Virus record (IMG/VR): IMGVR_UViG_3300035184_001394
Span: 1 to 64,000 of that record
DNA from: a virus
Lineage: Duplodnaviria > Heunggongvirae > Uroviricota > Caudoviricetes
DNA: 64,000 nucleotides
Direction: 5' to 3' (one strand)
Of this stretch, positions 1 through 39,740 are shown one piece after another. Under the pieces are notes generated by a model. The model searched no databases. It was not told the DNA's origin and was given only the letters and a program-made list of their open reading frames with translations. Position numbers and translations under genes: made by a program. Positions within the stretch are counted from its first letter, which is position 1, and every line of letters starts with the position of its first letter.

Positions 1-728
1 ATCATGTTTGCATCAATACGTTCAGCAATACGTTCTTCAGCCATTTCCATTGTAATATACAGTACGTCCTTTCCGTACATCAGATGGTTTGCAGCCATAT
101 GACATTTAATTAACGACTTACCGCCACCAGTAGTTGCTAGTAATACTGTCATTGACTTGCGAGGTAGACCACCTTTGGTAATTGTATTAAGCAAGTCAAT
201 ATCAAAGGGAACTCGTTCTTCTTTCTTATGATAGAAATCGTATCGACCTTCGTATTCTTCTAGATAATCATGACCAACGCTCGAGTCAAAACTGATACCT
301 AGTGAGTCTTGTAAAAGTTTTGGTATTGAACCCTTACCTTCTTCAGTACCATCTTTAGAGCCTTCATCATCAGCATCTAGGATATTAATTGCTTTACGAA
401 TAGAGTTATAAAGATCTTTATTCTGGCAAAACTTTTCAGTTTCATCGAATAGAAATTGAGTATTTGTATCTTTATCAACTTTCAATTCACTGATAGAACT
501 CATTATTTCAGAATAAGATGTTTCGTTTAAGTCTTTACGATTATCAATCGAGATTCGCAGAGCCTCCAATGAAGGAGGCGCCTTATATTGTTCAACATAA
601 TCGCGATAAGAATCAAAGATTTTACGGTGTGTGTTATCATCAAAATATTCGTCTTTAATAAAAGGATATACTTTTGCGTAGTATTCGTTATTATAGACTA
701 AATTAGATAGTATCGTTGTTTCCATCAT
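1..728 (-). CDS. 41: gp41 DNA primase-helicase (DnaB-like), N-terminal 242 aa; 3' end lies beyond the window start
   Basis: Reverse-complement translation from ATG at 728/725 gives MMETTILSNLVYNNEYYAKVYPFIKDEYF...GGGKSL...LYITMEMAEE...RIDANM, collinear with T4 gp41 N-terminus and the Walker A/helicase motifs. Overlaps the uvsX-C stop by about 26 nt. Confidence 0.85.
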   Translation of the reverse strand, partial: MMETTILSNLVYNNEYYAKVYPFIKDEYFDDNTHRKIFDSYRDYVEQYKAPPSLEALRISIDNRKDLNETSYSEIMSSISELKVDKDTNTQFLFDETEKFCQNKDLYNSIRKAINILDADDEGSKDGTEEGKGSIPKLLQDSLGISFDSSVGHDYLEEYEGRYDFYHKKEERVPFDIDLLNTITKGGLPRKSMTVLLATTGGGKSLIKCHMAANHLMYGKDVLYITMEMAEERIAERIDANM

Positions 729-1245
729 CTTTCATTTTTCCTGGTATAGTCAATTTATATTTACGTTCGATAAAGTTGTTAAATGTTTCGTTTTTAACAA
801 GAGCTTCGAAGAATTTATCATCAGAACCTAAGTCTTTCTGTCTACGCTTAGGTTCAACAAGCTCACCAGTTTCTTGGTCAACAACATTATACCAGCCTTG
901 AGTGGCGCCTTTTGCTATATGTCCAGATTCAATAGCTAAGTCAAACAATGCTGACCACTTTTGAATACCAGAATCATACAATACAGTGAATGGTAGTTTT
1001 GCTTTTTCACGAACAAAACGAGATTTTTCGATATTGATTGTAAATTTAAATCCTGCTAAATCAGTACCATCTTTTTCTTGAGACTTACTAATAATAAAGA
1101 TTTGATTTGCTGAATAATAGATACCAGTATTGTGTGTTACTATACCATTTTTGAGTACATAATGTTGCTCATCATAATTTTCAGTTGCTATTGATAAATC
1201 ATAAACCGGTTTTCTACCAACCTGTTTAACGTTAACTATTTTCAT
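703..1245 (-). CDS. uvsX: UvsX recombinase, C-terminal fragment. 39-aa split-intein C-half (IntC) fused to the 141-aa UvsX C-extein
   Basis: Starts MKIVNVKQVGRKPVYDLSIATENYDEQHYVLKNGIVTHN then TGIYYSANQIFIISKSQEKDGTDLAGFKF... The HN/T junction and VYDL...NGI.xHN match intein blocks F/G. The remainder aligns to T4 UvsX after its GGG|TG site. Own SD (AAGGAAAC) lies in the 53-nt gap upstream. Confidence 0.8.
   Translation of the reverse strand: MKIVNVKQVGRKPVYDLSIATENYDEQHYVLKNGIVTHNTGIYYSANQIFIISKSQEKDGTDLAGFKFTINIEKSRFVREKAKLPFTVLYDSGIQKWSALFDLAIESGHIAKGATQGWYNVVDQETGELVEPKRRQKDLGSDDKFFEALVKNETFNNFIERKYKLTIPGKMKDDGNNDTI
1129..1245 (-). other. IntC, the split-intein C-terminal half within the uvsX-C ORF
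   Basis: 39 aa ending in HN, followed by a Thr +1 extein residue. Close resemblance to DnaE-type IntC (e.g. ...VYDIGV..HNF.LKNGFIASN). Confidence 0.75.
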
Positions 1246-1298
1246 TTTGTTTCCTTATTTCATTAAGATATAGCTTTCTAGCTAGAGCAATTGTATCA

Positions 1299-2204
1299 CT
1301 AAATAACAGTACAATCCATTCCAACAACTAAATCTTTAGCTTCAACCCATTCTTCGTTAACCAAGAATTTATGTTTATCTGAAACAGTTGCTTTAAATCC
1401 ATCTTCAAATTCAACTTCATAACATTCTGGATTGCCATCTTCAAGTGTATCAGGGTTCCAAACATGACTTACAACTTTATCACCGTTTAGAGTAATAACT
1501 TTTTCGCCAACATTGAAGTCTTCAACATTCTTAAGACCATCTGGTGTTTGAATTTCTGTGCCTTCAACTACGCAACCACCAGATACAATATTCTTAGGAA
1601 ACATACCAATTTCTTGATAGATATGATTAACAGCTAAACAAGGAATGTTTCTTGTAGTTAGCTTTGGAGTTATGATGCGAAATAAAGATTTAAGTTGCTT
1701 AGCACGAGTCATATCAGCAGCTGAGTTATCTTTCATAGCATCGTCAACTTCTTTCTTAGAAGCTAAGTTACCGATAGAATCGATCATGATGAATACACGA
1801 TCTTTCTTATCAATCTGGTCTAATCGCTTAACGATATCAAATTTAAGCTGTTCAACATCTTCGATTGGAATATGTAGTACACGTGACGTATCAATATCAA
1901 AACTTTCTAAATAATCTGGTGTAATACCAAATTCTGAATCATACAACAAAGCAACACCATCTTTATATTTTTCAAGATATGCTTTCATACAATACAGTGA
2001 TAGTAGAGTTTTGAAACTTTTTGATGCACCAGCGACAACAGTTAGACCTGGGATTAAACCACCTTTAAGTGAACCACTAAAAGCGATATTCACAATTGGT
2101 AATTCAGTCTGAATTGGTTCTTTTTCGTCAAAGAAAGCAGATTTATTTACAACACCAGCTTGTTTGATTGAACCGGATTTTAACATTTTATCTAAAAGAC
2201 TCAT
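1299..2204 (-). CDS. uvsX: UvsX recombinase, N-terminal fragment. 210-aa RecA-like N-extein fused to a 91-aa split-intein N-half (IntN)
   Basis: MSLLDKMLKSG...GASKSFKT...DSEFGITP...MTRAKQLKSLFRIITP...CLAVNHIYQ...KNIVSGG is collinear with T4 UvsX. It is then followed by CVVEGTEIQT...ATVSDKHKF...DCTVI-stop, which carries intein blocks A/B. Stop codon and a 53-nt intergenic gap precede the IntC ORF. Confidence 0.8.
   Translation of the reverse strand: MSLLDKMLKSGSIKQAGVVNKSAFFDEKEPIQTELPIVNIAFSGSLKGGLIPGLTVVAGASKSFKTLLSLYCMKAYLEKYKDGVALLYDSEFGITPDYLESFDIDTSRVLHIPIEDVEQLKFDIVKRLDQIDKKDRVFIMIDSIGNLASKKEVDDAMKDNSAADMTRAKQLKSLFRIITPKLTTRNIPCLAVNHIYQEIGMFPKNIVSGGCVVEGTEIQTPDGLKNVEDFNVGEKVITLNGDKVVSHVWNPDTLEDGNPECYEVEFEDGFKATVSDKHKFLVNEEWVEAKDLVVGMDCTVI
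1302..1574 (-). other. IntN, the split-intein N-terminal half at the 3' end of the uvsX-N ORF
   Basis: Begins with Cys1 (CVVEGTEI). Block B-like T..H (ATVSDKHKF). 91 aa is typical of DnaE-type IntN. The ORF terminates immediately after it. Confidence 0.75.
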
Positions 2205-3541: not shown

Positions 3542-4150
3542 TTAAAAAAATTTATCTTTGACGATTTGTTTGAATCGTTGTTCATCGTATCGCAAGAAGG
3601 GTTTATACTTCTTGGATTTTATTATTATATCATAAAATATAATTTTGTCAACTACTTTTTCACTCCAATATGAATATATATTAGACATATGAGCTAACAT
3701 CGTAAATGTTTCAAGTGTTATCTTCTTTTGAAGCAATAATTTACCAATATGTGGATGTTGACCATTGTGTGATATAAAGTTAGATTGATAGTCATCTTTC
3801 AAATTACTCAAATCTGATTTGAAAACATGACCTAACGAATCTATCTTCTTTTTCCATTCAACATATATATTATAACCAGAATCATCCATAAGATCTCTTA
3901 TCCAAGCGTCTGGATTAACAACCATGTTAGCTAGTATCATATTCTCATAATCAGGTTTATTTGCAAGTTTTGCAAAAAAGTATGCGTCATTGCGAGTTCT
4001 AAAAGTTTCAAAGTTTGCTTTGACTTTGCCATTATATTTGTGAAAGTCGTAGCTTTTTGTAGTGAAATGTCTTTTATACGCAAGATATTTCACATAACTA
4101 TTGAAAGCAGTTTGGTTAATTAAATTCTGTGATGTCGATATCATCGTCAT
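3542..4150 (-). CDS. 59: gp59 helicase-loading protein
   Basis: RNDAYFFAKLANK and NPDAWIRDL match T4 gp59 (RDKYFFQKLSEK, NQDAWIGDI). Position 59 then 32 as in T4. Confidence 0.8.
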   Translation of the reverse strand: MTMISTSQNLINQTAFNSYVKYLAYKRHFTTKSYDFHKYNGKVKANFETFRTRNDAYFFAKLANKPDYENMILANMVVNPDAWIRDLMDDSGYNIYVEWKKKIDSLGHVFKSDLSNLKDDYQSNFISHNGQHPHIGKLLLQKKITLETFTMLAHMSNIYSYWSEKVVDKIIFYDIIIKSKKYKPFLRYDEQRFKQIVKDKFF

Positions 4151-4352
4151 ATACCATCCTAAGATTTATAGCTTCACTTTTAACTTTTTCGCGCAACACA
4201 GCAGATTTTTTAACTACACTAGCAACAACTTCAATTTCGATGTTGTTCTTTTCCGAATATTCAACAAGAGCTTCGATGTAAGGAATTCCACTTGCTATCA
4301 TATGGGATATTTCATGATGTATTTTTTCTGGTGTTAATGCGATTACAGTCAT
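4116..4352 (-). CDS. 33: gp33-like late transcription co-activator (78 aa, acidic C-terminus)
   Basis: Small protein directly upstream of 59-32 (T4 order 33-59-32). Acidic C-terminal tail. Sigma70-like promoter at 4400-4428. Identity rests on synteny and composition only. Confidence 0.45.
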   Translation of the reverse strand: MTVIALTPEKIHHEISHMIASGIPYIEALVEYSEKNNIEIEVVASVVKKSAVLREKVKSEAINLRMVYDDDIDITEFN

Positions 4353-4399: not shown

Positions 4400-4428
4400 A
4401 TTATAACACAGTTATAAATAAATGTCAA
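4400..4428 (-). promoter_or_regulatory. early sigma70-like promoter (minus strand) for the 33-59-32 transcription unit
   Basis: rc reads TTGACA, 17 nt, TATAAT. Confidence 0.5.
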
Positions 4429-4436
4429 CGTTTTAT

Positions 4437-5114
4437 TTAAATTTCTTCAAATAAAACGTTATTAATATATCTATCTTTAGCTTGTTCTGATATGCCCATA
4501 GCAAGTATAGATCTATGCAGGTGCTTATTCATCTTCTGATTTTCACAATATTTGTTAAGTTGAGTTTTAGTTGGTAAGGTAGTAATCATTTTAATATCAT
4601 TGCAAGAAGCCAAATAAGCCTTAATAAGGTTAGTAGATAAACAAATCAACTGTTCTAACTCATCACCATAAGTGATAGAACCAGCAGCAACCATGTTGTC
4701 TGAGAATATTTCAGTAGCCCATTCAGGTAAATCTCTTGGTTTATTCCATTTAATATCCTTAACAGACGCTTTAAACAGTTCGCATAATGGATGAACTTGA
4801 TCTTTTATAACAGGAGAAAAGTCAAAAAACGAACCACTTATTTTAGTTTTAGATGCAACTATATCAAAACCAAGAATAGGTAAGTTAACATTTTCTCTTG
4901 GAAATATATTGATATGTAGCAACCACATTCTACCATCGTTAATCGTTTTCAAATGACACTTTCTAATGTTATCACTACACCAGAAAGAATCAGTCCACCC
5001 ATCGAATTGCTGATCATGTTTTTCGTTTATAAACGGTTTTAAATGATTATTAAACGTTTCGCTAAGACTTGATGCAAATGTATCAAGTTTATCCCAGAGT
5101 GGATTGATATCCAT
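4437..5114 (-). CDS. ferredoxin-dependent bilin reductase (PebS/PcyA/PcyX family)
   Basis: WLLHINIFPRENVNLPILGFDIVASKTKISGSFFDFSPV matches the FDBR core (hhh.FP....d.P.fG.D.v.....i...hhD.sP). Start overlaps the heme oxygenase stop (ATGA). Confidence 0.7.
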   Translation of the reverse strand: MDINPLWDKLDTFASSLSETFNNHLKPFINEKHDQQFDGWTDSFWCSDNIRKCHLKTINDGRMWLLHINIFPRENVNLPILGFDIVASKTKISGSFFDFSPVIKDQVHPLCELFKASVKDIKWNKPRDLPEWATEIFSDNMVAAGSITYGDELEQLICLSTNLIKAYLASCNDIKMITTLPTKTQLNKYCENQKMNKHLHRSILAMGISEQAKDRYINNVLFEEI

Positions 5115-5689
5115 TATAGATCATCAACTTCAAAATCTTCACCTTCAAAATTATCAACTAATTCTAAAAATAATAGCTCTGCAAACTTAAAACAGACAAT
5201 AGCTTCTGGGGCCATATCATTATTTAACATACTACGAAGATCTGTGATCAACTGTTTGCGACCAGTAAACTCATACATTGTACCAGAACCAGGGACTCTC
5301 TTTTTGATTATTTGACCACCATGTAAATCACCAAAATGCCGAACGTACAGATGAGCTAATAGCTTATCATGTTCTCCTTTTGCGCTAAGCTCGGTTATAT
5401 GACTAATATATGAACTAACTGATTCGAGGTTTTCGGTTATTTCTTCAAGTCCATACTCATCTTCAAGTCCATGCATATCTTGCATTATATGAGAAGCTCG
5501 AAAAACAGTTTTAAGTTTTGACGGAATTGTCACTAACGACTCAAGTGCTTCATAAATCTCATACTGGGCCGAGAGATACTGGTAATATAGTAGTGGATTT
5601 ATTCTTCCGCCTAATAATATTTCAGCAAAATCTGAGCCTTCTATATTATTATGATTCTCTTTGGTCAGTTCTCTTAAGTTTAGTGTCAT
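5114..5689 (-). CDS. ho1: heme oxygenase
   Basis: AHLYVRHFGDLHGGQII is the HO signature (cf. YVRYLGDLSGGQ). Translationally coupled to the downstream bilin reductase. Confidence 0.8.
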   Translation of the reverse strand: MTLNLRELTKENHNNIEGSDFAEILLGGRINPLLYYQYLSAQYEIYEALESLVTIPSKLKTVFRASHIMQDMHGLEDEYGLEEITENLESVSSYISHITELSAKGEHDKLLAHLYVRHFGDLHGGQIIKKRVPGSGTMYEFTGRKQLITDLRSMLNNDMAPEAIVCFKFAELLFLELVDNFEGEDFEVDDL

Positions 5690-5784: not shown

Positions 5785-6036
5785 TTAAACGTCCTCGCAT
5801 GCTTTGCGACTAAGTTTCTTGAGTTTGGTTTCTTTTGTTTTGTTGTATTCATCTTTAACACCTAATATAAAAAATATAACGTAAAAACACGATGGAATTG
5901 ATAAGATAACTTGTAATAATCCAGCTGCAGTATCAGTAGTTCGAACATAAGACGCTACTGATATTATTACAATTGCAACAATAAAAATTGAAAATCTAGT
6001 AACGTTAATGAATTTTGTTTTTCTTTCTGCAATCAT
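5785..6036 (-). CDS. small membrane protein (83 aa, two TM segments)
   Basis: Hydrophobic ORF downstream of early promoter 6069-6096. Confidence 0.5.
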   Translation of the reverse strand: MIAERKTKFINVTRFSIFIVAIVIISVASYVRTTDTAAGLLQVILSIPSCFYVIFFILGVKDEYNKTKETKLKKLSRKACEDV

Positions 6037-6068
6037 CTAAACTTTTCACTTTTATTATTAATATGTTA

Positions 6069-6096
6069 TTATAACACAACAAAAAGAAAATGTCAA
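6069..6096 (-). promoter_or_regulatory. early sigma70-like promoter (minus strand)
   Basis: rc TTGACA then 16-17 nt then TATAAT. Confidence 0.5.
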
Positions 6097-7709: not shown

Positions 7710-7738
7710 ATTATAACACCACTAAAAGAAAATGTCAA
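7710..7738 (-). promoter_or_regulatory. early sigma70-like promoter (minus strand)
   Basis: rc TTGACA, 17 nt, TATAAT. Confidence 0.5.
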
Positions 7739-9228: not shown

Positions 9229-9257
9229 ATTATACTAAAATCAAAGTAAAATGTCAA
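9229..9257 (-). promoter_or_regulatory. early promoter plus conserved leader (minus strand)
   Basis: rc TTGACA, 17 nt, TATAAT, then AGTTACATAAATTGATAAAGG. Confidence 0.5.
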
Positions 9258-11238: not shown

Positions 11239-11368
11239 AATTTATTTCCTAATTCAAGTTTTTTTAAAGGTTTATCAATTTATGTAACTATTATAATTTA
11301 TTTCCACATAATTTATTTCCTAATTCAAGTTTTTTTAAAGGTTTATCAATTTATGTAACTATTATAAT
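11236..11368 (-). repeat. perfect tandem duplication (2 x 62 nt, period 71) of the early 5' leader/RBS/start region
   Basis: cataatttatttcctaattcaagtttttttaaaggtttatcaatttatgtaactattataat occurs at 11236-11297 and 11307-11368. The upstream copy yields mini-ORF ATG TGG AAA TAA (MWK). Confidence 0.85.
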
Positions 11369-11389
11369 AAAATCAAAGCGAAATGTCAA
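11361..11389 (-). promoter_or_regulatory. early promoter (minus strand) driving the duplicated leader and gene 10921-11238
   Basis: rc TTGACA, 17 nt, TATAAT. Confidence 0.5.
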
Positions 11390-31681: not shown

Positions 31682-32101
31682 ATGAAATACGATAACGGTA
31701 AAACAGATTTATCATTGATACCACCAGAAGTCTTAGTTGACATTGCGTGTGTATTAGGCTTTGGTGCAAAGAAATATGGTAGGGATAATCACCGCTTTGA
31801 TGCTGGAGAAACTGAATGGAGTAGAGTATATGCTTCAGCCCAACGCCACTTGCATGATTTTTGGTCAGGTGAAGATTTTGACCCAGAATCTGGTCAGAAA
31901 CATATAACACACGCAATTACCCAATTGATTATTCTTGCAACTGCAATTAACGATGGCCATACGAATATGGATGACCGGTTTTTTACAAAATTAAAACAGT
32001 TAAGCACTACAGAAAAACCAAAACCCGACAGTCTCTTAGATACTAAAGCAACTAAACATGCACCCTATGTATATTTAAAGTCTCGGGAGATTATTGAATA
32101 A
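31682..32101 (+). CDS. dNTP pyrophosphohydrolase of the MazZ / dATP-dGTP diphosphohydrolase N-domain type (DUF5664-like)
   Basis: MKYDNGKTDLSLIPPEVLVDIACVLGFGAKKYGRDN...WSRVYASAQRHLHDFWSGEDFDPESGQKHITHAITQLIIL matches the family consensus (KYD.GK...LIPPEAL..LA.VLTFGA.KY...W....W.R...A..RHL..........D.ESG..HLAHA). Confidence 0.6.
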   Translation: MKYDNGKTDLSLIPPEVLVDIACVLGFGAKKYGRDNHRFDAGETEWSRVYASAQRHLHDFWSGEDFDPESGQKHITHAITQLIILATAINDGHTNMDDRFFTKLKQLSTTEKPKPDSLLDTKATKHAPYVYLKSREIIE

Positions 32102-32850
32102 TGATAGTTGAAGATATACGTAAATACTTTAAAGAAGAACTTGCTGCAGAACGTTTCACTATTGATAAAACTGGTGCTAAAACGATCGAGTTGTTAGGTG
32201 CTAGCTTTATTGCTGATGAACCTGCTATTTTTGGTATTCCTAATCAAGAATATATTGATGCTGAAATAAAATGGTACAATAGTTGTTCTACTAATATTAA
32301 TACATTAGAAAAAATTTATGGTAAGAAACCAGCTGCGTGGGCTTACTCAGCAAATTCTTATGGCGAAATCAATTCGAATTATGGTCATCTTTTGTTTGAA
32401 CCAAAGTACTATAATCAATTTGAAAATGCTGTAAAAGAACTAATCAATAACCCTGATAGTAGACGTGCTCAACTAACATACACTAGACCTTCTGTATGGG
32501 TTGATTTTAACGAAAGCGGCAAAAACGATTTCATATGTACTTTAGGTCAACTGTTTTATATACGTGATAATAAATTACATATGGTAAGCATGATGCGAAG
32601 CAACGACTCTTGGGCTGGTTATCGCAATGATTATGCTTGGGCTAAATATCTTATGGAACTCGCTGTTAACGAATACAATGTTGGATGTGAAAATACTCCT
32701 ATTGCTATTGGTAATCTGTATTGGCAAGTAGCCAATATGCACATATATGAAAGAAATTTCTATTTAGTTGATTATTATTCAAAAACAGGTAAATTTCATA
32801 TTTCTAAACCCGACTATGCTGCAAAATATCCGAATAGTCAATATAATTAA
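32101..32850 (+). CDS. 42: gp42 deoxycytidylate 5-hydroxymethyltransferase
   Basis: Nearly collinear with T4 gp42: VDKTGAKTIELLGASFIADEP, GEINSNYG, NPDSRRAQLTYTRPS, MRSNDSWAGYRNDYAW (Asp retained, so cytosine-specific), HIYERNFYLVDYY, HISK.DY..KY. Confidence 0.9.
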   Translation: MIVEDIRKYFKEELAAERFTIDKTGAKTIELLGASFIADEPAIFGIPNQEYIDAEIKWYNSCSTNINTLEKIYGKKPAAWAYSANSYGEINSNYGHLLFEPKYYNQFENAVKELINNPDSRRAQLTYTRPSVWVDFNESGKNDFICTLGQLFYIRDNKLHMVSMMRSNDSWAGYRNDYAWAKYLMELAVNEYNVGCENTPIAIGNLYWQVANMHIYERNFYLVDYYSKTGKFHISKPDYAAKYPNSQYN

Positions 32851-32853
32851 CTG

Positions 32854-32882
32854 TTGACATTTCGGTTTAAGCTTGTTATAAT
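32854..32882 (+). promoter_or_regulatory. early promoter plus leader (plus)
   Basis: GTTGACATTT, 17 nt, TATAAT, AGTTACATAAATTTATTAGGAA ATG. Confidence 0.5.
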
Positions 32883-32911
32883 AGTTACATAAATTTATTA
32901 GGAAATATATT

Positions 32912-33364
32912 ATGTGTGATAAGTGGCATAAACGTTACCTTCATTTAGCAAAGAATATTGCTTCATGGAGCAGAGATCCTTCTCGTAAAATCGGAGCAGT
33001 TGCTATTGGTTCTAAAGGTCAGGTATTAGCTCAAGGTTTCAATGGATTCCCTCGGGGTATTCGAGATACTGAAGAAAGATATAATGACCGCGAGACTAAG
33101 TATAAATATGTCGTACACGCTGAAATGAACTGTATATATAACGCTACGTATAGTGGTGTTAGCCTTGATGGTAGTTCATTATATGTGCATGGTTTACCAG
33201 TTTGTTCTGAATGCGCTAAAGGTATTATTCAAACTGGAATCAAAGAAGTATTTTGGTCTGCTGATGAAGAAATACCAGTAAGATGGTGTGATGCTTATAA
33301 GATAACAAAGAATATGCTTCTAGAAGCTGGCATAAATATAACATATGTAAACATAGGAGAATAA
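32912..33364 (+). CDS. cd: dCMP deaminase
   Basis: Zinc-binding HAEMNC...PCSECAK motifs. Confidence 0.85.
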   Translation: MCDKWHKRYLHLAKNIASWSRDPSRKIGAVAIGSKGQVLAQGFNGFPRGIRDTEERYNDRETKYKYVVHAEMNCIYNATYSGVSLDGSSLYVHGLPVCSECAKGIIQTGIKEVFWSADEEIPVRWCDAYKITKNMLLEAGINITYVNIGE

Positions 33365-33367
33365 AAA

Positions 33368-33730
33368 TTGGAAGATGATTTATTACCAACAATAAGTGCG
33401 GTTATATTACTACCAGAGAGTAGATCTGACGTAACAAGATATGTGTTGATTGGAGATTTTAAATATGCTGGATTTGAAGTTCCAAGTGGGTTTGTGACTG
33501 ACGGTTTGACTATACCAAGGATATTTTGGAGCATACTACCACCCATTCACAGATACTTTCCTGCAGCCATAATTCATGATTATCTATTAACACAAGTATC
33601 TCGCGTAGAAGCTGACAGAGAGTTTAAGATTGTACTGAAAAAGCTAAATATATCTAGAGTGCGTAGATTTTTAATGGCTGCCGCAGTAAGATTATATTCA
33701 ACAATACTAAAAATATTAAATAAAAGTTGA
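33368..33730 (+). CDS. DUF1353 family protein (TTG start)
   Basis: FVTDGLTIPRIFWSILPP...AAIIHDYLL matches the DUF1353 signature. AGGAGA SD 8 nt before TTG. Confidence 0.6.
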   Translation: MEDDLLPTISAVILLPESRSDVTRYVLIGDFKYAGFEVPSGFVTDGLTIPRIFWSILPPIHRYFPAAIIHDYLLTQVSRVEADREFKIVLKKLNISRVRRFLMAAAVRLYSTILKILNKS

Positions 33731-33755
33731 CATTATAATCAACTTGTGATATAGT
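33727..33755 (+). promoter_or_regulatory. early promoter (plus) with an unusually long (about 80 nt) leader before the MIPS gene
   Basis: TTGACA, 17 nt, TATAGT. Confidence 0.45.
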
Positions 33756-33837
33756 AGTATCAATTAAACAACTGTGGGCTACTCTGCTTAAACCCAGCCA
33801 ATCCCACATTAATAAACTGAAATAATAGAGGAAGAAA

Positions 33838-35118
33838 ATGTCTAAAATTAATATCGCTATTGCCGGCGTCGGTAATTGCTCATCAGCACTTATTCAAGGT
33901 GTAGAATACTATAAAGAAAATCCAGAAGATACCATAGGTCTTATGTTTGAAGACATCGGTGGTTTTTCTGCTAAAAACTTTAATTTTGTTGTTGGATTTG
34001 ATGTCGATGCCCGTAAAGTTGGCCAACGATTAAATAACTCAATCTATGCTAAACCAAATTGTAACATGGAAGTATATCCTCCAAGTCATAATTTGACTTG
34101 TATAGCATCTAAATCGACAGTATACAGATCGCCAACATTTGATGGTATAGCACCTCACATGCACGATTTACATCCTGATATATCCTTCGTAGAAGATACA
34201 GAAACTCTGGCTATCACGGCTAATGAATACATTCAAATTCTTAAAGATAACAAAGTTGATGTATTACTTAACTATATGCCAGTTGGTTCTGAAACAGCAG
34301 CTCGTTGGCACATTGAAAATGCTATTCGCGCAGGTGTCCATATTGTTAACTGTATGCCAACATATATATCTACTAAAGATGCAATGGAACTTGAGAGACT
34401 TGCTATCGAACATGGCGTAACAGTTGTTGGTTCTGACATGCGTTCTGATTACGGCGCGTCACGTTTATCTGAGGTGTTACAAGGTTCAATTATGGATTCT
34501 GGATTGTTGGTTACTCAACACATCCAAGAAAACAAAGCTTGTGGAACTACTCAAGGTGATATGCGCCGTACTGGTCGTACTGCAAATACTGACTTCTTAA
34601 ACATGGCAACTAAAGATCGTTTAAAAAATAAACATATCTCTAAAGAAAATGTTTTAAATGGTCAAGCTGCTGTACGTGGTAAAGATATTGCTGGTCTTAC
34701 AATGTATGCTGGTCCGTCACTTACAGTTTTCCAAAAACCAGGTGATGAATACATTGGTTCAGATAATAAGATTGCTAATATTGATATGGTATTCTGGGGA
34801 TGGGCTGGGGCTCGCTATGAATTGACTGCTCGTTTATCTGTTCAAGATTCTCCTAATAGTGCTGGAATTGTATTTGATGCAGTTCGTTTTTGCAAAGTTG
34901 CTGCTGAGATGGGTATTGTTGGTTACTTACGTGGTCCATCGGCACACTCTCAAAAGACACCACCAACTCAGCTAAAAACTGCTGATTCAAAATTCGAATG
35001 CGAAGCATTAGCTCGTAGGATTTTAACTGATCTTACTCGTCCGCAACTCGCCGAAAATTACCCACAAGTTGAAGATTTGCTTTATACATTCCAAGCTGAT
35101 ACTTCAGATTACGAATAA
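33838..35118 (+). CDS. myo-inositol-1-phosphate synthase (MIPS/Ino1 family, bacterial-actinobacterial type)
   Basis: Collinear with mycobacterial Ino1, recalled from memory. INIAIAGVGNCSSALIQGVEYYK matches VAIVGVGNCASSLVQGVEYYY. KVDVLLNYMPVGSE matches KVDVLVSYLPVGSE. LSVQDSPNSAGIVFDAVRFCKVA matches [23 protein letters not shown]. Confidence 0.85.
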   Translation: MSKINIAIAGVGNCSSALIQGVEYYKENPEDTIGLMFEDIGGFSAKNFNFVVGFDVDARKVGQRLNNSIYAKPNCNMEVYPPSHNLTCIASKSTVYRSPTFDGIAPHMHDLHPDISFVEDTETLAITANEYIQILKDNKVDVLLNYMPVGSETAARWHIENAIRAGVHIVNCMPTYISTKDAMELERLAIEHGVTVVGSDMRSDYGASRLSEVLQGSIMDSGLLVTQHIQENKACGTTQGDMRRTGRTANTDFLNMATKDRLKNKHISKENVLNGQAAVRGKDIAGLTMYAGPSLTVFQKPGDEYIGSDNKIANIDMVFWGWAGARYELTARLSVQDSPNSAGIVFDAVRFCKVAAEMGIVGYLRGPSAHSQKTPPTQLKTADSKFECEALARRILTDLTRPQLAENYPQVEDLLYTFQADTSDYE

Positions 35119-35132
35119 AGGAAAAATATATT

Positions 35133-35510
35133 ATGAATACTTTTGATATTGATGGTGTGATTTATATGGGTAAAGACCATGACGGCGTTTACCCTGGGCC
35201 GAACGACTTGATTATTACTGGTCGTTCTATTGAAGAAAAACCAGAAACTATTAGGATGCTGCAGCAGAAAGGGATTAATAATAAAGTTTATTTTAATCCC
35301 TTACCATTTAAACAAAAGACCAGAGAAAGTTCTGGTCACCATAAAGCAGACATCATTTCAGCTCTTATTACATTAGGTTGTCCTATAGATATCCACTTTG
35401 AAGATGATCCAATACAAGCTGATATAATCAAAAAGGTTACATCAATTCACGTTGTATTATTAAACCACAACTTAACTGAAAAGGAGAATATGCGCCATGG
35501 GGGATACTGA
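35133..35510 (+). CDS. small HAD-superfamily phosphatase (125 aa)
   Basis: N-terminal FDIDGVIY (HAD motif I DxDGV) and C-terminal IHFEDD (motif IV). Confidence 0.5.
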   Translation: MNTFDIDGVIYMGKDHDGVYPGPNDLIITGRSIEEKPETIRMLQQKGINNKVYFNPLPFKQKTRESSGHHKADIISALITLGCPIDIHFEDDPIQADIIKKVTSIHVVLLNHNLTEKENMRHGGY

Positions 35511-36240
35511 AATGTATAAAGGCTATAAAATTAGAACAGGCCCGGGTATTGATCGTGATATGATTCGCGATTCACTAAAACATTATAGCCACTTCTCACT
35601 TGATAAAAAATCAGTAGTGCTTGATCTTGGTTCTAATATTGGTGGATTTACTAGGATGGCAAACGAAAAAGAAGTTAAACAATACATAGCAGTAGAACCA
35701 GATCCAGAAAATATGGAATTAACAACTGTTAATTCCATAGACGGAAGTAATAACTTATATTTGTTGGGTGTAGCCTCTATTTCTGAATCAGAACATTTAA
35801 CGTTTTTTCAATCTAATGCTGTAAGATCAAAATGCTCTGGAACTATTAATAGTAAAAGTCAAACAGCTACTAGAAAGAATGGCACTGCATACGATGTTGT
35901 TAATTATAATGTGTATGAACTGTTGGAAAAATATAAACCTACTCATGTCAAATGTGATATAGAAGGAGCAGAAATTGATTGGTTAGCTGATTGCGAAGGT
36001 ATATTTCCAGACTATATTCAGGAGTTGGCGTTTGAGTTGCATGGTAGAGCTGGTATAGTAGAACTCGAGCGATATTACGATAATATAATTGAACATTTTG
36101 AAATAGTTAGTTTTGTTCCATCTGTTGGGTTTAAAGGCAGTTTTAATAAAAAAGACGCTGTACTGTATGAAAAAGTTGGATATACAACAGAAGGTACTTT
36201 GTGGAGCATAGACTTATTCTTGCGTAGAAGAGTAAAATAA
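35497..36240 (+). CDS. FkbM-family SAM-dependent methyltransferase
   Basis: VVLDLGSNIGGFT is the FkbM motif (D.GAN.G.F). Confidence 0.65.
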   Translation: MGDTEMYKGYKIRTGPGIDRDMIRDSLKHYSHFSLDKKSVVLDLGSNIGGFTRMANEKEVKQYIAVEPDPENMELTTVNSIDGSNNLYLLGVASISESEHLTFFQSNAVRSKCSGTINSKSQTATRKNGTAYDVVNYNVYELLEKYKPTHVKCDIEGAEIDWLADCEGIFPDYIQELAFELHGRAGIVELERYYDNIIEHFEIVSFVPSVGFKGSFNKKDAVLYEKVGYTTEGTLWSIDLFLRRRVK

Positions 36241-37406
36241 TGATTGATGGTACACATAAATCATACGAAGTACCTAAAGGATTTAAATCTGCTGACTCAA
36301 ATTATCCACTGGATAAATATTTTGATTTGTGCGACGTTGAGAAATTTCTTGACTTTAAATATTTTGTATGCGAAGTTAATAAGAGATCGGAATGGCAAAG
36401 GGGTCTTATTACAACATACGATTATAAAGAGTATGCTCTTAATCCAAATACAGAATACTTTCATCCGATGATTACATACGACGATCGTATGGTTTATATC
36501 GCTGAAAATATAGTAGGATTATCAAGCGACACTTTATCTCTACACAATAAGATTGGTAACACAATTATATCTCACTTCTATGGAGCTAGAGGTATTCACC
36601 AGATTGCCACTCGTAATAATGACGTTAAAACTGCTCATGTTGATTTTGAAAACTATTTTACTACTGACGAGCGCTCTCGTATACGAGAAAATTTAAAACT
36701 TTCAAAAATTGCTGGTTTGCCTATATATGGTTCTACTGAATTGCGTACTTCTCTCTGGGGTGCTGCAAACAAATATCAACAAAGCCGTTTTAATGTTACA
36801 ACCGAAGAAGAAAGAAAGCACCCTGGAAATATTATGGATTGGGTAGCTGGTTTATGCGAAGATGGAACTTTTGATCGTTTAATTAGTTGTAATTCTATTA
36901 AAGAAGCATTTAATGAACTCACTTCTAACGCTGGTATTGGAAGTTATTATGGATTCCATTGTGCTACTTCAAATTCAGTAAACCCTGAGTTGAACTGGAC
37001 TAATGATGATAACTTCGTTAAACCTGGACCTGGTGCTCAATATACTTTAAAGTTGATGTTTCCAAACGCAACAAATAAGTTAATTAACAGTGGCGATCTT
37101 GTTATATGGTTTAGACACAATCAAAAGTTCTTTGGTTTTGGCGATATTGAAATCCATGAATCTGCTCATAATATTTTAAATTTTGAAGGCAAAAAGATTC
37201 TTGAAAAAGATCAAACCGAAATGATGACTTATGGTTCTGAGGTTGCTATGTGCCAATATGGTATTTTTTGTAAGTTGCGCGAAGATAAAAAAGCTTGCGA
37301 TAGACGTAAAGTTGCCCGTATAGGAGATAGAAACATTGAAAAAATGCTAAATATGGCTGAGCAAGAACAAATTTCTCAAGCAGCATTTCAACAATTTTTT
37401 ACATGA
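36240..37406 (+). CDS. hypothetical protein (388 aa) within the modification module
   Basis: Translationally coupled to FkbM (ATGA). No motif recognised. Confidence 0.5.
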   Translation: MIDGTHKSYEVPKGFKSADSNYPLDKYFDLCDVEKFLDFKYFVCEVNKRSEWQRGLITTYDYKEYALNPNTEYFHPMITYDDRMVYIAENIVGLSSDTLSLHNKIGNTIISHFYGARGIHQIATRNNDVKTAHVDFENYFTTDERSRIRENLKLSKIAGLPIYGSTELRTSLWGAANKYQQSRFNVTTEEERKHPGNIMDWVAGLCEDGTFDRLISCNSIKEAFNELTSNAGIGSYYGFHCATSNSVNPELNWTNDDNFVKPGPGAQYTLKLMFPNATNKLINSGDLVIWFRHNQKFFGFGDIEIHESAHNILNFEGKKILEKDQTEMMTYGSEVAMCQYGIFCKLREDKKACDRRKVARIGDRNIEKMLNMAEQEQISQAAFQQFFT

Positions 37407-37413
37407 GGTAAAT

Positions 37414-38517
37414 ATGAAAACAATTATAGCAGCACCATTCATCCCTATGTCGTTTCAGATAACGAGTCATAGGGCAGCACAAGGAATTATATATGCTGAT
37501 TTGCTTAAACACTATCACACAGACGATATTTCAGTAAGCTTATCTAGACCAAGCGTACAAGGTCCCGAAGCTAAAGAATCAAACAAAACAGAAGATTTTA
37601 ACGAATATGATAGATTATATATCTATCATGGTAATGATCGTAAAGCAGACGCTGGTGATCTAAACTTTTTTGGTGGAACTCGAAATTTCCCTCATGCTTA
37701 CAATATTAGAAATATTTCTAAATTTAAAGGTGAAGTTTATTCTATTGGATATGATATGCCTGATTATGCTACTATGTTAGAGCACAAGATTACTGGCCAT
37801 GAAAAGCGAGATGGTACACTTGACACAATGGTTCCTGAATTTCTCGAAGTTGATATTGATAATTTAAGAGCAATGCAAGAAAGAGCGATCACAATTATAC
37901 CACAACATCCTAGTTGGAGCGGTTTAGTGATCGGTGATAGTCATGCTATTTGTATGTATCGTGAAGGATATAATGTTAATTCAGTTCCGTTTAAAACTTT
38001 GTATGGAGCCTTAGAATTAGGCTTAAAAAGTTTCATAAATAAAAATGACATTAAGGATATTGAATGTTACTTTGGTAACATTGATATACGTCATCACATT
38101 TGTAGACAGGACGATCATAAACAAGCTATTAGAGATCTTGTTGATCGTTATGTCGACCAAGTCGATTCTTTGGATATGGAAAGTAAAGTGATCTATGAAC
38201 TATTACCTATCGAAAACGAACGCAGAAATCTTCCAAAAAGCGGATGGTATCTTGGTGAGAAATTTCATGGTACGTGGGCTGAGCGTAACGCAGCAAGACT
38301 TTACTTTAAAGAATACTCAATGAAAAGAGTTCAAGGAACGAGTGTTGAATTTCGTGAATGGCTCACTCCATCGTATTATAATGAATTAGGTGAACTTGAT
38401 TTTAAAGCTATGGAGCGACCAAAATCAGTTCATTTATCTCGTGAATACTATCCTCATTGGCAAGGACTTGAATACAATAAAATTAATAAAACAACAATTG
38501 AGGATTTTTTTCAATGA
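37414..38517 (+). CDS. T4 beta-glucosyltransferase-like DNA glycosyltransferase (GT-B)
   Basis: MKTIIA... and NEYDRLYIYHG...DLNFFGGTRNF parallel T4 beta-gt MKIAIINMG... and NDYDRLIVVNSSINFFGGK. Similar length (367 vs 351 aa). Confidence 0.5.
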   Translation: MKTIIAAPFIPMSFQITSHRAAQGIIYADLLKHYHTDDISVSLSRPSVQGPEAKESNKTEDFNEYDRLYIYHGNDRKADAGDLNFFGGTRNFPHAYNIRNISKFKGEVYSIGYDMPDYATMLEHKITGHEKRDGTLDTMVPEFLEVDIDNLRAMQERAITIIPQHPSWSGLVIGDSHAICMYREGYNVNSVPFKTLYGALELGLKSFINKNDIKDIECYFGNIDIRHHICRQDDHKQAIRDLVDRYVDQVDSLDMESKVIYELLPIENERRNLPKSGWYLGEKFHGTWAERNAARLYFKEYSMKRVQGTSVEFREWLTPSYYNELGELDFKAMERPKSVHLSREYYPHWQGLEYNKINKTTIEDFFQ

Positions 38518-39740
38518 AGCACGCAACGATCATACCACTTATAGGAGGCGAAGCACTAGCATCTACTGAAGTATTTGGAACTAAACCAGAATACATTTTG
38601 TCTTATAAAGGATTTGAAAACAATGAAAAACACTTACTAAACTATTGGAATAACGAAGTACCCTATCATGTACTTGACGATGAGAACAGTATTGCTCCTA
38701 AAAATATTAATGAGAAAGTTGATGTTATATCGAGTGTCTGTCCTTGTGCTGGATTAAGTCAATATCATTCTAAACACGGAGCTGAAAATCAAAATAACCA
38801 ATGGATGGAGAAAACAGCCAAGCATATTCTAGAAACCGTACAACCGAGTGTATTTTGGGGAGAAAATGCTCCTGCTCTTGTTGGTAAGATCGGTGAGTTT
38901 ATGTTAACTAAACTACGTAAAATTGGCCTCGATAATGGATACTCTATGGGTCTATATCTTACTAAGAATATTAAACATGGTATTCCACAATTTCGTAAAC
39001 GCACTTTCTATTTCTTCTGGAAGAAAAGCGAGTTTGGTGATACTGCACCAATGCTTAAATTTATTAACAAAGAACACACAAAAATTGAAGATGTAATTAT
39101 GAGCGCTACTGGTAGTACACAGTTAGAACCAATTAATTCTAAAATTCCAAGCAAAGACGATCCTTACTATAGATATCTTCTTGAAGTAATTCATGGTGGT
39201 ATTACGCATAGAGAATATTTTGAGTTATTAAAAACTAAAAATGTTCGAGGCAACGATGTAGAATCTATTATTATAAATTCAGGTCACGATTATATGATGG
39301 TTGGTGAATGGATGGAAAAAAATGGATACGACAGAGAAGTTCCAAAATGTGAACGAAAATATCATAAGCTAAAAGATGGTGGCAATATAATGCGACGTGG
39401 CACTATTATTCCTAAAGATTATATTGGAGCTTTTGTTGGTCATTATCCGACAGTTCTTACTCATCCATATGAAGATCGTTATATTAATTATCGCGAAGCA
39501 ATGACTATTATGGGATTACCACAAGATTACGAATTGTTAGACCCTAAAAAATCTGCTAATCATATTTGTCAGAATGTTCCATTACAAACTGCTAAAGATA
39601 TGGTGTTAGAAATTAAAGCTGTTTTCGAAGGAAAGCGCCAATTTTCTGATACTGATTTTTTATTACAATCTAACATAAACGAAACATCCAGAACTTTGAA
39701 TATACCAGATAAAGAGCAAAGTTTAGAATCATTTTTCTGA
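38514..39740 (+). CDS. C5-cytosine methyltransferase-like protein
   Basis: Motif I IIPLIGGEA, motif IV SSVCPCAGLS (Pro-Cys), motif VI FWGENAPAL (ENV), motif VIII QFRKR, motif X REAMTIMGLPQDY. Last gene of the module. Confidence 0.65.
   Translation: MKHATIIPLIGGEALASTEVFGTKPEYILSYKGFENNEKHLLNYWNNEVPYHVLDDENSIAPKNINEKVDVISSVCPCAGLSQYHSKHGAENQNNQWMEKTAKHILETVQPSVFWGENAPALVGKIGEFMLTKLRKIGLDNGYSMGLYLTKNIKHGIPQFRKRTFYFFWKKSEFGDTAPMLKFINKEHTKIEDVIMSATGSTQLEPINSKIPSKDDPYYRYLLEVIHGGITHREYFELLKTKNVRGNDVESIIINSGHDYMMVGEWMEKNGYDREVPKCERKYHKLKDGGNIMRRGTIIPKDYIGAFVGHYPTVLTHPYEDRYINYREAMTIMGLPQDYELLDPKKSANHICQNVPLQTAKDMVLEIKAVFEGKRQFSDTDFLLQSNINETSRTLNIPDKEQSLESFF

Follow-up and report, generated by a model that had tools for sequence, protein, structure and literature searches.

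The DNA analysed here comprises positions 1 to 64,000 of the IMG/VR virus record IMGVR_UViG_3300035184_001394 (64,000 nt, referred to below as the window), and is part of a T4-like phage genome. On its minus strand it carries two adjacent genes, encoding a HemO-type heme oxygenase (HO) and an FDBR (ferredoxin-dependent bilin reductase), together with the features listed in Table 1. Both open reading frames (ORFs) lie where an initial annotation of the window, made from the sequence alone, had placed them, and the signature motifs quoted there were found (the HO contains LYVRHFGDLHGGQ, the FDBR IFPRENVNLPILGFDIVASKTKISGSFFDFSPV). The family identities proposed for the two products were borne out as well, since both exceed the Pfam cut-offs: 74.8 bits against 23 for the HO (PF01126, Heme_oxygenase) and 70.2 bits against 31 for the FDBR (PF05996, Fe_bilin_red). 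Judged by its sequence, the reductase belongs to an abundant, well-supported, phage-only branch of FDBRs that we did not find described in the papers examined, and that is marked by a lysine (Lys56) at an active-site position occupied by an acidic residue in the enzymes PcyA and PcyX; this branch is referred to as the Lys clade.

Table 1. Features of the hemO-FDBR locus in the window (positions in nt).
Feature	Position	Strand	Evidence
Heme oxygenase (HemO-type, 191 aa)	5114..5689	minus	Pfam, PDB matches, AF2 model, conserved residues
Ferredoxin-dependent bilin reductase (FDBR, 225 aa; PcyX-like radiation, Lys-type clade)	4437..5114	minus	Pfam, PDB, AF2, tree
FDBR clade residues Asp42, His54, Lys56, His67, Asn69, Asp84, Leu199, His200	within 4437..5114	minus	alignments
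TAATG stop/start junction, 1-nt overlap at base 5114	5112..5116	minus	direct sequence reading
Sigma-70-type promoter, TTGACA-N17-TATAAT, TG-extended -10; predicted transcription-unit start	6068..6096	minus	perfect consensus match
Next perfect sigma-70-type promoter, 9 nt past the FDBR stop, before the gp33-like gene	4400..4428	minus	consensus match
gp33-like late-transcription coactivator gene	4116..4352		Pfam Trans_coact
83-aa ORF, hydrophobic, between promoter and HO gene	5785..6036	minus	ORF call

The HO shares significant similarity with heme oxygenases of the Protein Data Bank (PDB; E down to 2.4e-10) and is identical to a protein from a JGI metagenome. Its AlphaFold2 (AF2) model, built on 80 homologues, has a mean predicted local distance difference test (pLDDT) score of 92.8. 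In Foldseek comparisons, the model gave template modeling (TM) scores of 0.79-0.80 along its full length to HmuO and HO-1, and of 0.75-0.80 across HmuO, HO-1 and HO-2, in each case over approximately 200 aligned columns, which indicates that this short protein has the complete HO fold. Residues conserved in at least 95% of 122 sequences are His13, Glu17, Tyr115, Arg117, Gly120, Asp121, Gly124, Gly125 and Gln126. The distal-helix stretch Tyr115-x-Arg117-His118-Phe-Gly120-Asp121-x-x-Gly124-Gly125-Gln126 aligns with the segment ...R-Y-[ML]-G-D-L-S-G-G-Q of solved heme oxygenases. The sequence and fold hallmarks of a canonical HO were therefore found, i.e., the Pfam score, the all-helical fold, the proximal His ligand and the distal-helix G-D-x-x-G-G; the roles of single residues (His13 as the proximal ligand, and those of the distal helix) are presumably those established for HO-1. 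The protein is expected to be an active, biliverdin-forming enzyme of the canonical family, as judged from its model and conserved residues. Its product is assumed to be biliverdin IX-alpha (cleavage at the alpha-meso position), by analogy with assayed HemO enzymes of phages (PMC11480375).

The closest solved relative of the FDBR is PcyX_EBK42635 (5OWG), with E values of 1.6e-31 for the single sequence and 1.2e-53 for a 104-sequence profile, followed by PcyA (2e-13 and 8e-21, respectively). In the profile search of the PDB, PebB gave a marginal match (E 3.5e-06), and PebS and PebA were not matched even at E<=1. The AF2 model (pLDDT 94.5, predicted TM score 0.91) has the alpha/beta/alpha fold of FDBRs, and its 46 Foldseek matches in the PDB at E<=0.001 are FDBRs and red chlorophyll catabolite reductase, which shares this fold. 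PcyA structures stand at the top of the Foldseek order (TM 0.78); the score to the ordered part of PcyX is 0.84 when target-normalised, and those to PebA, PebS (0.65) and HY2 are lower. The best NCBIfam match is the PcyA equivalog NF002760, at 95.3 bits well below its cut-off of 206, while the PebA and PebB equivalogs scored 23-24 bits against cut-offs of 263-327. Sequence, model thresholds and phylogeny (see below) rule out a cyanophage PebS or PcyA, and support the assignment of the FDBR to the PcyA/PcyX lineage and not to PebS, PebA or PebB. The initial annotation had likened the protein to PcyX and not to PebS, and with regard to lineage (5OWG as the nearest structure, the failing equivalogs, the His/Asp pair) this view is supported; the protein is not, however, a canonical PcyX, as Lys replaces the Asp found in all PcyX enzymes whose product is known.

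The catalytic Asp/His pair, the lack of which would have told against a bilin reductase according to the initial annotation, is present. His67 and Asp84 correspond to His69/Asp86 of PcyX and His88/Asp105 of PcyA, align to the catalytic pair in 5OWG and 2D1E-type chains, and are invariant in 121 sequences; His54 corresponds to His74 of PcyA. Lys56, located in the motif C-H-L-K-T-I, aligns without gaps to Glu76 of PcyA and Asp55 of PcyX (residue 63 in the numbering of the 5OWG chain). Glu76 is a PcyA-specific residue without which the 18-vinyl group is not reduced (PMC13446030, PMC10151467), whereas PcyX members have Asp at this position (PMC13446030, Table 2), which has been called a PcyX-specific catalytic residue (PMC11480375). 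We found Asp in PcyX_EBK42635, PcyX_actino, the FDBR of Pelagibacter phage Mosig, GOS PcyX and those full-length phage FDBRs of the 2024 phage survey that were examined, and the supplementary FDBR FASTA of this survey contains no FDBR of the HLK type (PMC11480375). Lys56 is invariant among the window protein and its 120 closest database homologues, in alignment A1, and in 80 of the 80 IMG/VR loci examined. The protein thus has neither the Asp of PcyX nor the features of PcyA (Glu76 and an equivalog score above the cut-off).

The clade carries approximately 30 specific, near-invariant substitutions, several of which adjoin catalytic residues. Besides Lys56, and compared with Asp-type PcyX (its residue in parentheses), it has Asp42 (Asn), Lys52 (Arg), Thr57 (Val), Leu65 (Met), Asn69 (Cys), Leu199 (Thr), His200 (Pro) and Glu223 (Pro); the Thr replaced by Leu199 is conserved in nearly all PcyA and PcyX proteins. 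Throughout the clade, His67, Asp84 and Asp98 do not vary, nor do the R-x-L-P-x-W motif and many residues of the pocket, and most of its members retain the PcyX-type Pro at the position of PcyA Asp220.

Screening 1.84 billion cluster representatives yielded 217 FDBR relatives. Phylogeny, which the initial annotation had named as a check of its proposal, was addressed with a bootstrapped neighbour-joining tree (149 columns, 100 replicates, Poisson distance) to which published reference sequences had been added. The Lys-type sequences form one clade (97% bootstrap) inside a PcyX-like radiation (84%), whose members have Asp, Ser, Asn, Gln or Lys at position 56. This radiation is separate from the Bradyrhizobium-type PcyA and from the cyanobacterial plus cyanophage PcyA (88%), and the Peb enzymes constitute the outgroup. 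The Mosig FDBR groups with the crystallised PcyX (100%); the branching order within the PcyX-like radiation is without resolution in this neighbour-joining tree of 149 columns.

FDBR relatives are encoded by at least 347 IMG/VR viral contigs, some of 200-220 kb, and also occur on Tara and JGI contigs; the Lys lineage comprises more than 120 clusters at 90% identity. In a scan of one genome per species (185,579 species), only five loci were found, all of them on contigs of metagenome-assembled genomes (MAGs) with the same phage synteny. Three of the five lie in one bin, 'Rhodobacteraceae bacterium Water_Bin34', on three different T4-like phage contigs bearing the cassette: L008 (FZLS01000023), L009 (FZLS01000007) and L010 (FZLS01000045), with coverage of 5x, 86x and 61x, respectively. 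A Saprospiraceae and a Glaciecola MAG contain one cassette contig each. A cellular origin of the Lys-clade FDBR was rejected on the basis of the phage genes shared by the five MAG contigs and the uneven coverage within one bin. The MAG loci are probably mis-binned phage DNA and not evidence of a host, and such contigs could mislead host prediction. The Lys clade appears to be restricted to phages. In the papers examined, we found no description or assay of it; others may contain such sequences.

The two genes of the window overlap by a single base, shared by the stop codon TAA of hemO and the start codon ATG of the FDBR gene, so that the coding strand reads TAATG; the ATGA overlap given in the initial annotation was an error. 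Direct reading of the sequence revealed no clear Shine-Dalgarno motif upstream of the FDBR start, and the TAATG overlap without such a motif fits termination-reinitiation. The translational coupling proposed earlier is therefore compatible with the junction in the window. It does not extend to the cassette in general: the estimated spacing between the two genes in related IMG/VR loci ranges from about -43 to +1081 nt and mostly amounts to 100-900 nt, often with small inserted ORFs. Overlap being rare among the relatives, coupling was rejected as a conserved trait of the cassette and is regarded as a local feature of the window.

The order of the two genes and their place in the phage genome are conserved. 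Synteny was counted in the 80 best IMG/VR loci, using only those with enough flanking sequence; the HO gene lies upstream of the FDBR gene in 74 of 77 loci, and a gp33-like gene is located downstream in 76 of 79. On longer contigs, the order hemO-FDBR-gp33-like-gp59-gp32-UvsX is maintained. The 83-aa ORF preceding hemO in the window (orf83) has no Pfam or PHROG family; it is identical in relative L007, and no homologue was detected in more distant relatives. It is probably co-transcribed with hemO.

Upstream of orf83 there is a perfect sigma-70-type promoter, with no terminator-like site between it and hemO. Perfect TTGACA-N16-18-TATAAT sites are strongly over-represented in the window (20, with 0.13 expected by chance), and include those at 4400-4428, 6068-6096, 7710-7738, 9229-9257 and 11361-11389. 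Most of the 20 begin with TTGACATTT, and several have a TG-extended -10 element. The first of the sites named is predicted to drive the gp33-like gene and to mark where the cassette ends. Sites of the T4 late motif TATAAATA are about as frequent in the window as expected (16 sites, 14.9 expected), and none occurs upstream of hemO; a T4-type late promoter of the cassette was rejected on these grounds. The sequence thus points to one early transcript, dependent on the host polymerase and comprising orf83, hemO and the FDBR gene. As a separate observation, the 20 perfect promoters precede early and replication genes on both strands and form an unusually uniform early set.

The window encodes the T4-like replication and repair proteins gp32, gp59, UvsX, UvsW, the gp43 polymerase, gp46/47, topoisomerase II and the gp45/gp44 clamp and clamp loader, in addition to the gp33-like late-transcription coactivator and structural (baseplate) genes. 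In agreement with the initial annotation, no photosystem gene was recognised: photosynthetic reaction-centre families are absent among the ORFs given to Pfam, which included all those of at least 283 aa. Among the ORFs of at least 40 aa, a motif scan detected neither a plant-type 2Fe-2S ferredoxin nor hli motifs. The window has a GC content of 33% and no tRNA genes, and it has no near relative among cultured phages. Its DNA polymerase is at most approximately 44% identical to those of cyanomyophages, its gp32 is 50-59% identical to those of cyanophages and of the OM43 phage Melnitz alike, and no significant nucleotide similarity was found beyond the recA-like gene. The polymerase, gp32, tRNA and GC data single out no host.

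Two further gene regions of the window deserve mention. The UvsX recombinase gene (703-2204, minus strand) is split into two ORFs, apparently by a naturally split intein. Its N-terminal half ends with ...NIVSGG, followed by CVVEGTEIQ..., an N-intein of approximately 91 aa (Pfam Hint_2); the C-terminal half begins with a 39-aa piece ending in ...GIVTHN, after which come TGIYYSANQ and the C-terminal domain of UvsX. In the window, 53 nt separate the halves; in relative L002 the distance is approximately 900 nt, with additional ORFs in between. In L004, UvsX is a single unbroken ORF, as it apparently is in L008-L011, too, where the halves match contiguously. The second region (32101-39740, plus strand) contains a gene cluster resembling thymidine hypermodification systems, which encodes a thymidylate-synthase-like protein (phrog_160), an inositol-1-phosphate synthase-like protein (phrog_33138), an FkbM-type methyltransferase, a protein with a 5-hmdU DNA kinase domain, a protein of the family phrog_13881 without assigned function and a C5 cytosine DNA methylase.

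The main branch of the Lys clade, approximately 50% identical, has cassette flanks that differ from those of the window. It encodes (i) upstream of hemO, a secreted protein of about 265-285 aa that ends with ...F-x-F and resembles outer-membrane beta-barrels (L004, 8256-9113; L008, 3627-4427); (ii) between hemO and the FDBR gene, a small basic ORF of 55 aa; and (iii) downstream of the FDBR gene, a conserved Cys-rich protein of 116-119 aa (L004, 10690-11040; L008, 6685-7044). None of the three is present in the window.

Phage cassettes composed of hemO and an FDBR gene have reportedly been in print since 2016 (Ledermann and co-workers, 2016 and 2018). Their occurrence in marine, non-cyanophage T4-like carriers and the puzzle of their role have already been described (PMC11480375). 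The best cultured-phage relative of the FDBR is that of Mosig (30.7% identity), also encoded after hemO in a marine T4-like phage other than a typical cyanophage. PcyX (5OWG; Mosig) and the window FDBR share lineage, fold, the His/Asp pair, the Pro at the Asp220 position (in most clade members) and restriction of the gene to phages. They differ in the change of Asp55 to Lys56 and in the substitutions N to D42, M to L65, C to N69, T to L199 and P to H200, and the cassette lies in the replication module before gp33-like/gp59/gp32 in the window and before neck genes in Mosig. PcyA of cyanobacteria, cyanophages, Bradyrhizobium ORS278 and phage CB_2 has the same fold with the best Foldseek TM score, and its His74, His88 and Asp105 are matched by His54, His67 and Asp84 of the window protein, from which it is distinguished by Glu76, the equivalog score and its clade. 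Cyanophage PebS with ho1 is likewise a case in which one phage-encoded enzyme, partnered by a heme oxygenase, turns biliverdin into a phycobilin, as is predicted for the window. PebS belongs, however, to another FDBR lineage, carries Asn in place of His88 and makes use of Asp206; its phages are cyanophages with photosystem genes, in contrast to the window, where none was found. The pre-PcyA enzymes of heterotrophic bacteria (Pre-1, Pre-2, Pre-3) resemble the Lys clade in the lack of Glu76, the non-photosynthetic context and the association with heme oxygenase. They are cellular proteins with Asn or Thr at the His88 position (PMC13446030), and their genes are clustered with those of Fe-S, V4R and globin-like proteins, whereas the window FDBR has His67, occurs on phage contigs only and has no such neighbours. 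Finally, a three-gene phage cassette hemO-pcyA/X-alaS is known; alaS was not found in the scan of the window, in which no aminotransferase family occurred among the ORFs scanned (all those of at least 283 aa, in 64 kb of a probably much larger genome).

Considered as a whole, the locus is probably best explained as an auxiliary metabolic cassette with which an uncultured marine myovirus of the T4 type converts heme to a bilin by means of two enzymes, the second being an FDBR of the Lys clade. The host RNA polymerase would transcribe orf83, hemO and the FDBR gene early in infection from the consensus sigma-70 promoter. The HO would then open host heme to yield biliverdin, iron and CO, as suggested by its intact fold, the proximal His13 and the distal-helix motif GDxxGGQ. 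The FDBR would reduce biliverdin via His67/Asp84 with electrons of a host ferredoxin, the donor being sought in the host because none is encoded in the window. Reduction would take place at the A ring and possibly at a second site. A bilin with a reduced A ring is the most likely product, and by analogy with PcyX the single most likely one, proposed with due reserve, is phycoerythrobilin (PEB). Candidate benefits to the phage include the release of iron, a bilin signal and an antioxidant effect.

Assayed phage hemO-pcyX cassettes make biliverdin and PEB (PMC11480375). The window FDBR could be considered a plain PcyX orthologue, i.e., a four-electron PEB synthase acting via 15,16-dihydrobiliverdin (15,16-DHBV), in which Lys56 has no functional effect. 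This plausible, if tentative, reading is favoured by PcyX being the closest solved relative, by the retained His/Asp pair and the Pro at the Asp220 position in most members, and by the same hemO partner and phage type (PMC11480375). It is less easily reconciled with the low identity to Mosig PcyX and with the separate position of the clade in the tree and its many specific substitutions, some next to catalytic residues. Moreover, the FDBR of the freshwater phage CB_2, which looks like PcyX and lacks Asp55, is a PcyA and makes phycocyanobilin (PCB) (PMC11480375). The same precedent, together with the best NCBIfam match and the top Foldseek matches, could be taken to indicate that the window enzyme is itself a true PcyA forming PCB. 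This is highly improbable, because the residue that vinyl reduction requires is lacking (Lys in place of Glu76) and the PcyA model fails (95.3 bits vs. 206); the protein also groups with the PcyX-like radiation and with neither PcyA clade.

Loss of the second proton donor could instead have produced a two-electron reductase, forming phytochromobilin (reduction of the A ring only) or 15,16-DHBV. Lys56 takes the place of the acid in every clade member, PcyA needs Glu76 to reduce the 18-vinyl group (PMC13446030, PMC10151467), and pre-PcyA enzymes without Glu76 reduce the A ring to give phytochromobilin (PMC10151467). The window FDBR nevertheless has His67, unlike the pre-PcyA enzymes, PcyX performs four-electron chemistry without Glu76, and the invariant Asp42 and His200 could supply protons, which leaves a two-electron enzyme unlikely. 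A non-catalytic FDBR that binds or sequesters a bilin, with iron release by the HO as the purpose of the cassette, is barely tenable. The supply of iron has been discussed as a role of such cassettes (PMC11480375) and the pocket is heavily remodelled, but the invariance of His67, Asp84, Asp98, R-x-L-P-x-W and many pocket residues speaks for selection on catalysis, and in nearly all loci the two genes stay together.

The Lys clade might also constitute a new functional class with rewired proton donors, in which Asp42 pairs with Lys56, His200 is newly recruited, and the product or the order of reduction differs from those of PcyX and PcyA; we consider this possible but doubtful. In the FDBR model, a beta hairpin is made up of residues 40-46 and 50-59; its register would place Asp42 opposite His54 and diagonally from Lys56, on one and the same sheet face. 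Among cluster representatives of the PcyA/PcyX lineage, an acid at alignment position 42 (window 4989-4991) was found in 20 of the 38 sequences without an acid at position 56 (window 4947-4949) and in 1 of the 74 with one, in counts that ignore phylogeny. The combination of an acid at 42 and none at 56 occurs in several branches, of the Lys, Ser, Asn and Gln types. This pattern hints at a shift of the carboxylate from the strand of Glu76/Asp55 to Asp42 on the adjacent one.

Several points weigh against the overall interpretation of the locus as a heme-to-bilin cassette with a Lys-clade reductase. Apart from the neglect of phylogeny in the above counts, the placement of Asp42 is deduced from the hairpin register, the single early transcript is deduced from a consensus match, and the electron supply is presumed, as a ferredoxin is absent from the window. 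What the Glu76/Asp55 position does in PcyX is uncertain, since accounts conflict. Ledermann et al. (2018, FEBS J) reportedly found that PcyX does not need Asp55 for catalysis, which would favour the reading as a plain PcyX orthologue, and the exchange D55E reportedly did not turn the enzyme into a PcyA. Furthermore, the regiospecificity of FDBRs is not reliably predictable from sequence (PMC13193486), in line with the statement of the initial annotation that the bilin made cannot be read from the sequence.

Why phages of apparently non-photosynthetic marine bacteria carry genes for the conversion of heme to bilins is a question on which the authors of the 2024 survey only speculate (PMC11480375). 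The enzymes assayed so far are a handful of Asp-type PcyX proteins and one PcyA, to which the Lys lineage adds a second, abundant lineage, with a strictly conserved, chemically opposite residue at the very site that separates PcyA from PcyX, and with a constant position within the early replication module. This lineage is therefore a defined target for studying how the regiospecificity of FDBRs is set, and extends the range of phages by which host heme is remodelled. Should the enzyme prove to be a plain PEB synthase, the Glu76/Asp55 position would tolerate a reversal of charge. If, on the other hand, the Lys clade is a new functional class, its product could be, e.g., phytochromobilin, 15,16-DHBV, or PEB formed by a different route, and the enzyme would be deployed early by widespread, large, marine T4-like phages whose hosts may be non-photosynthetic.

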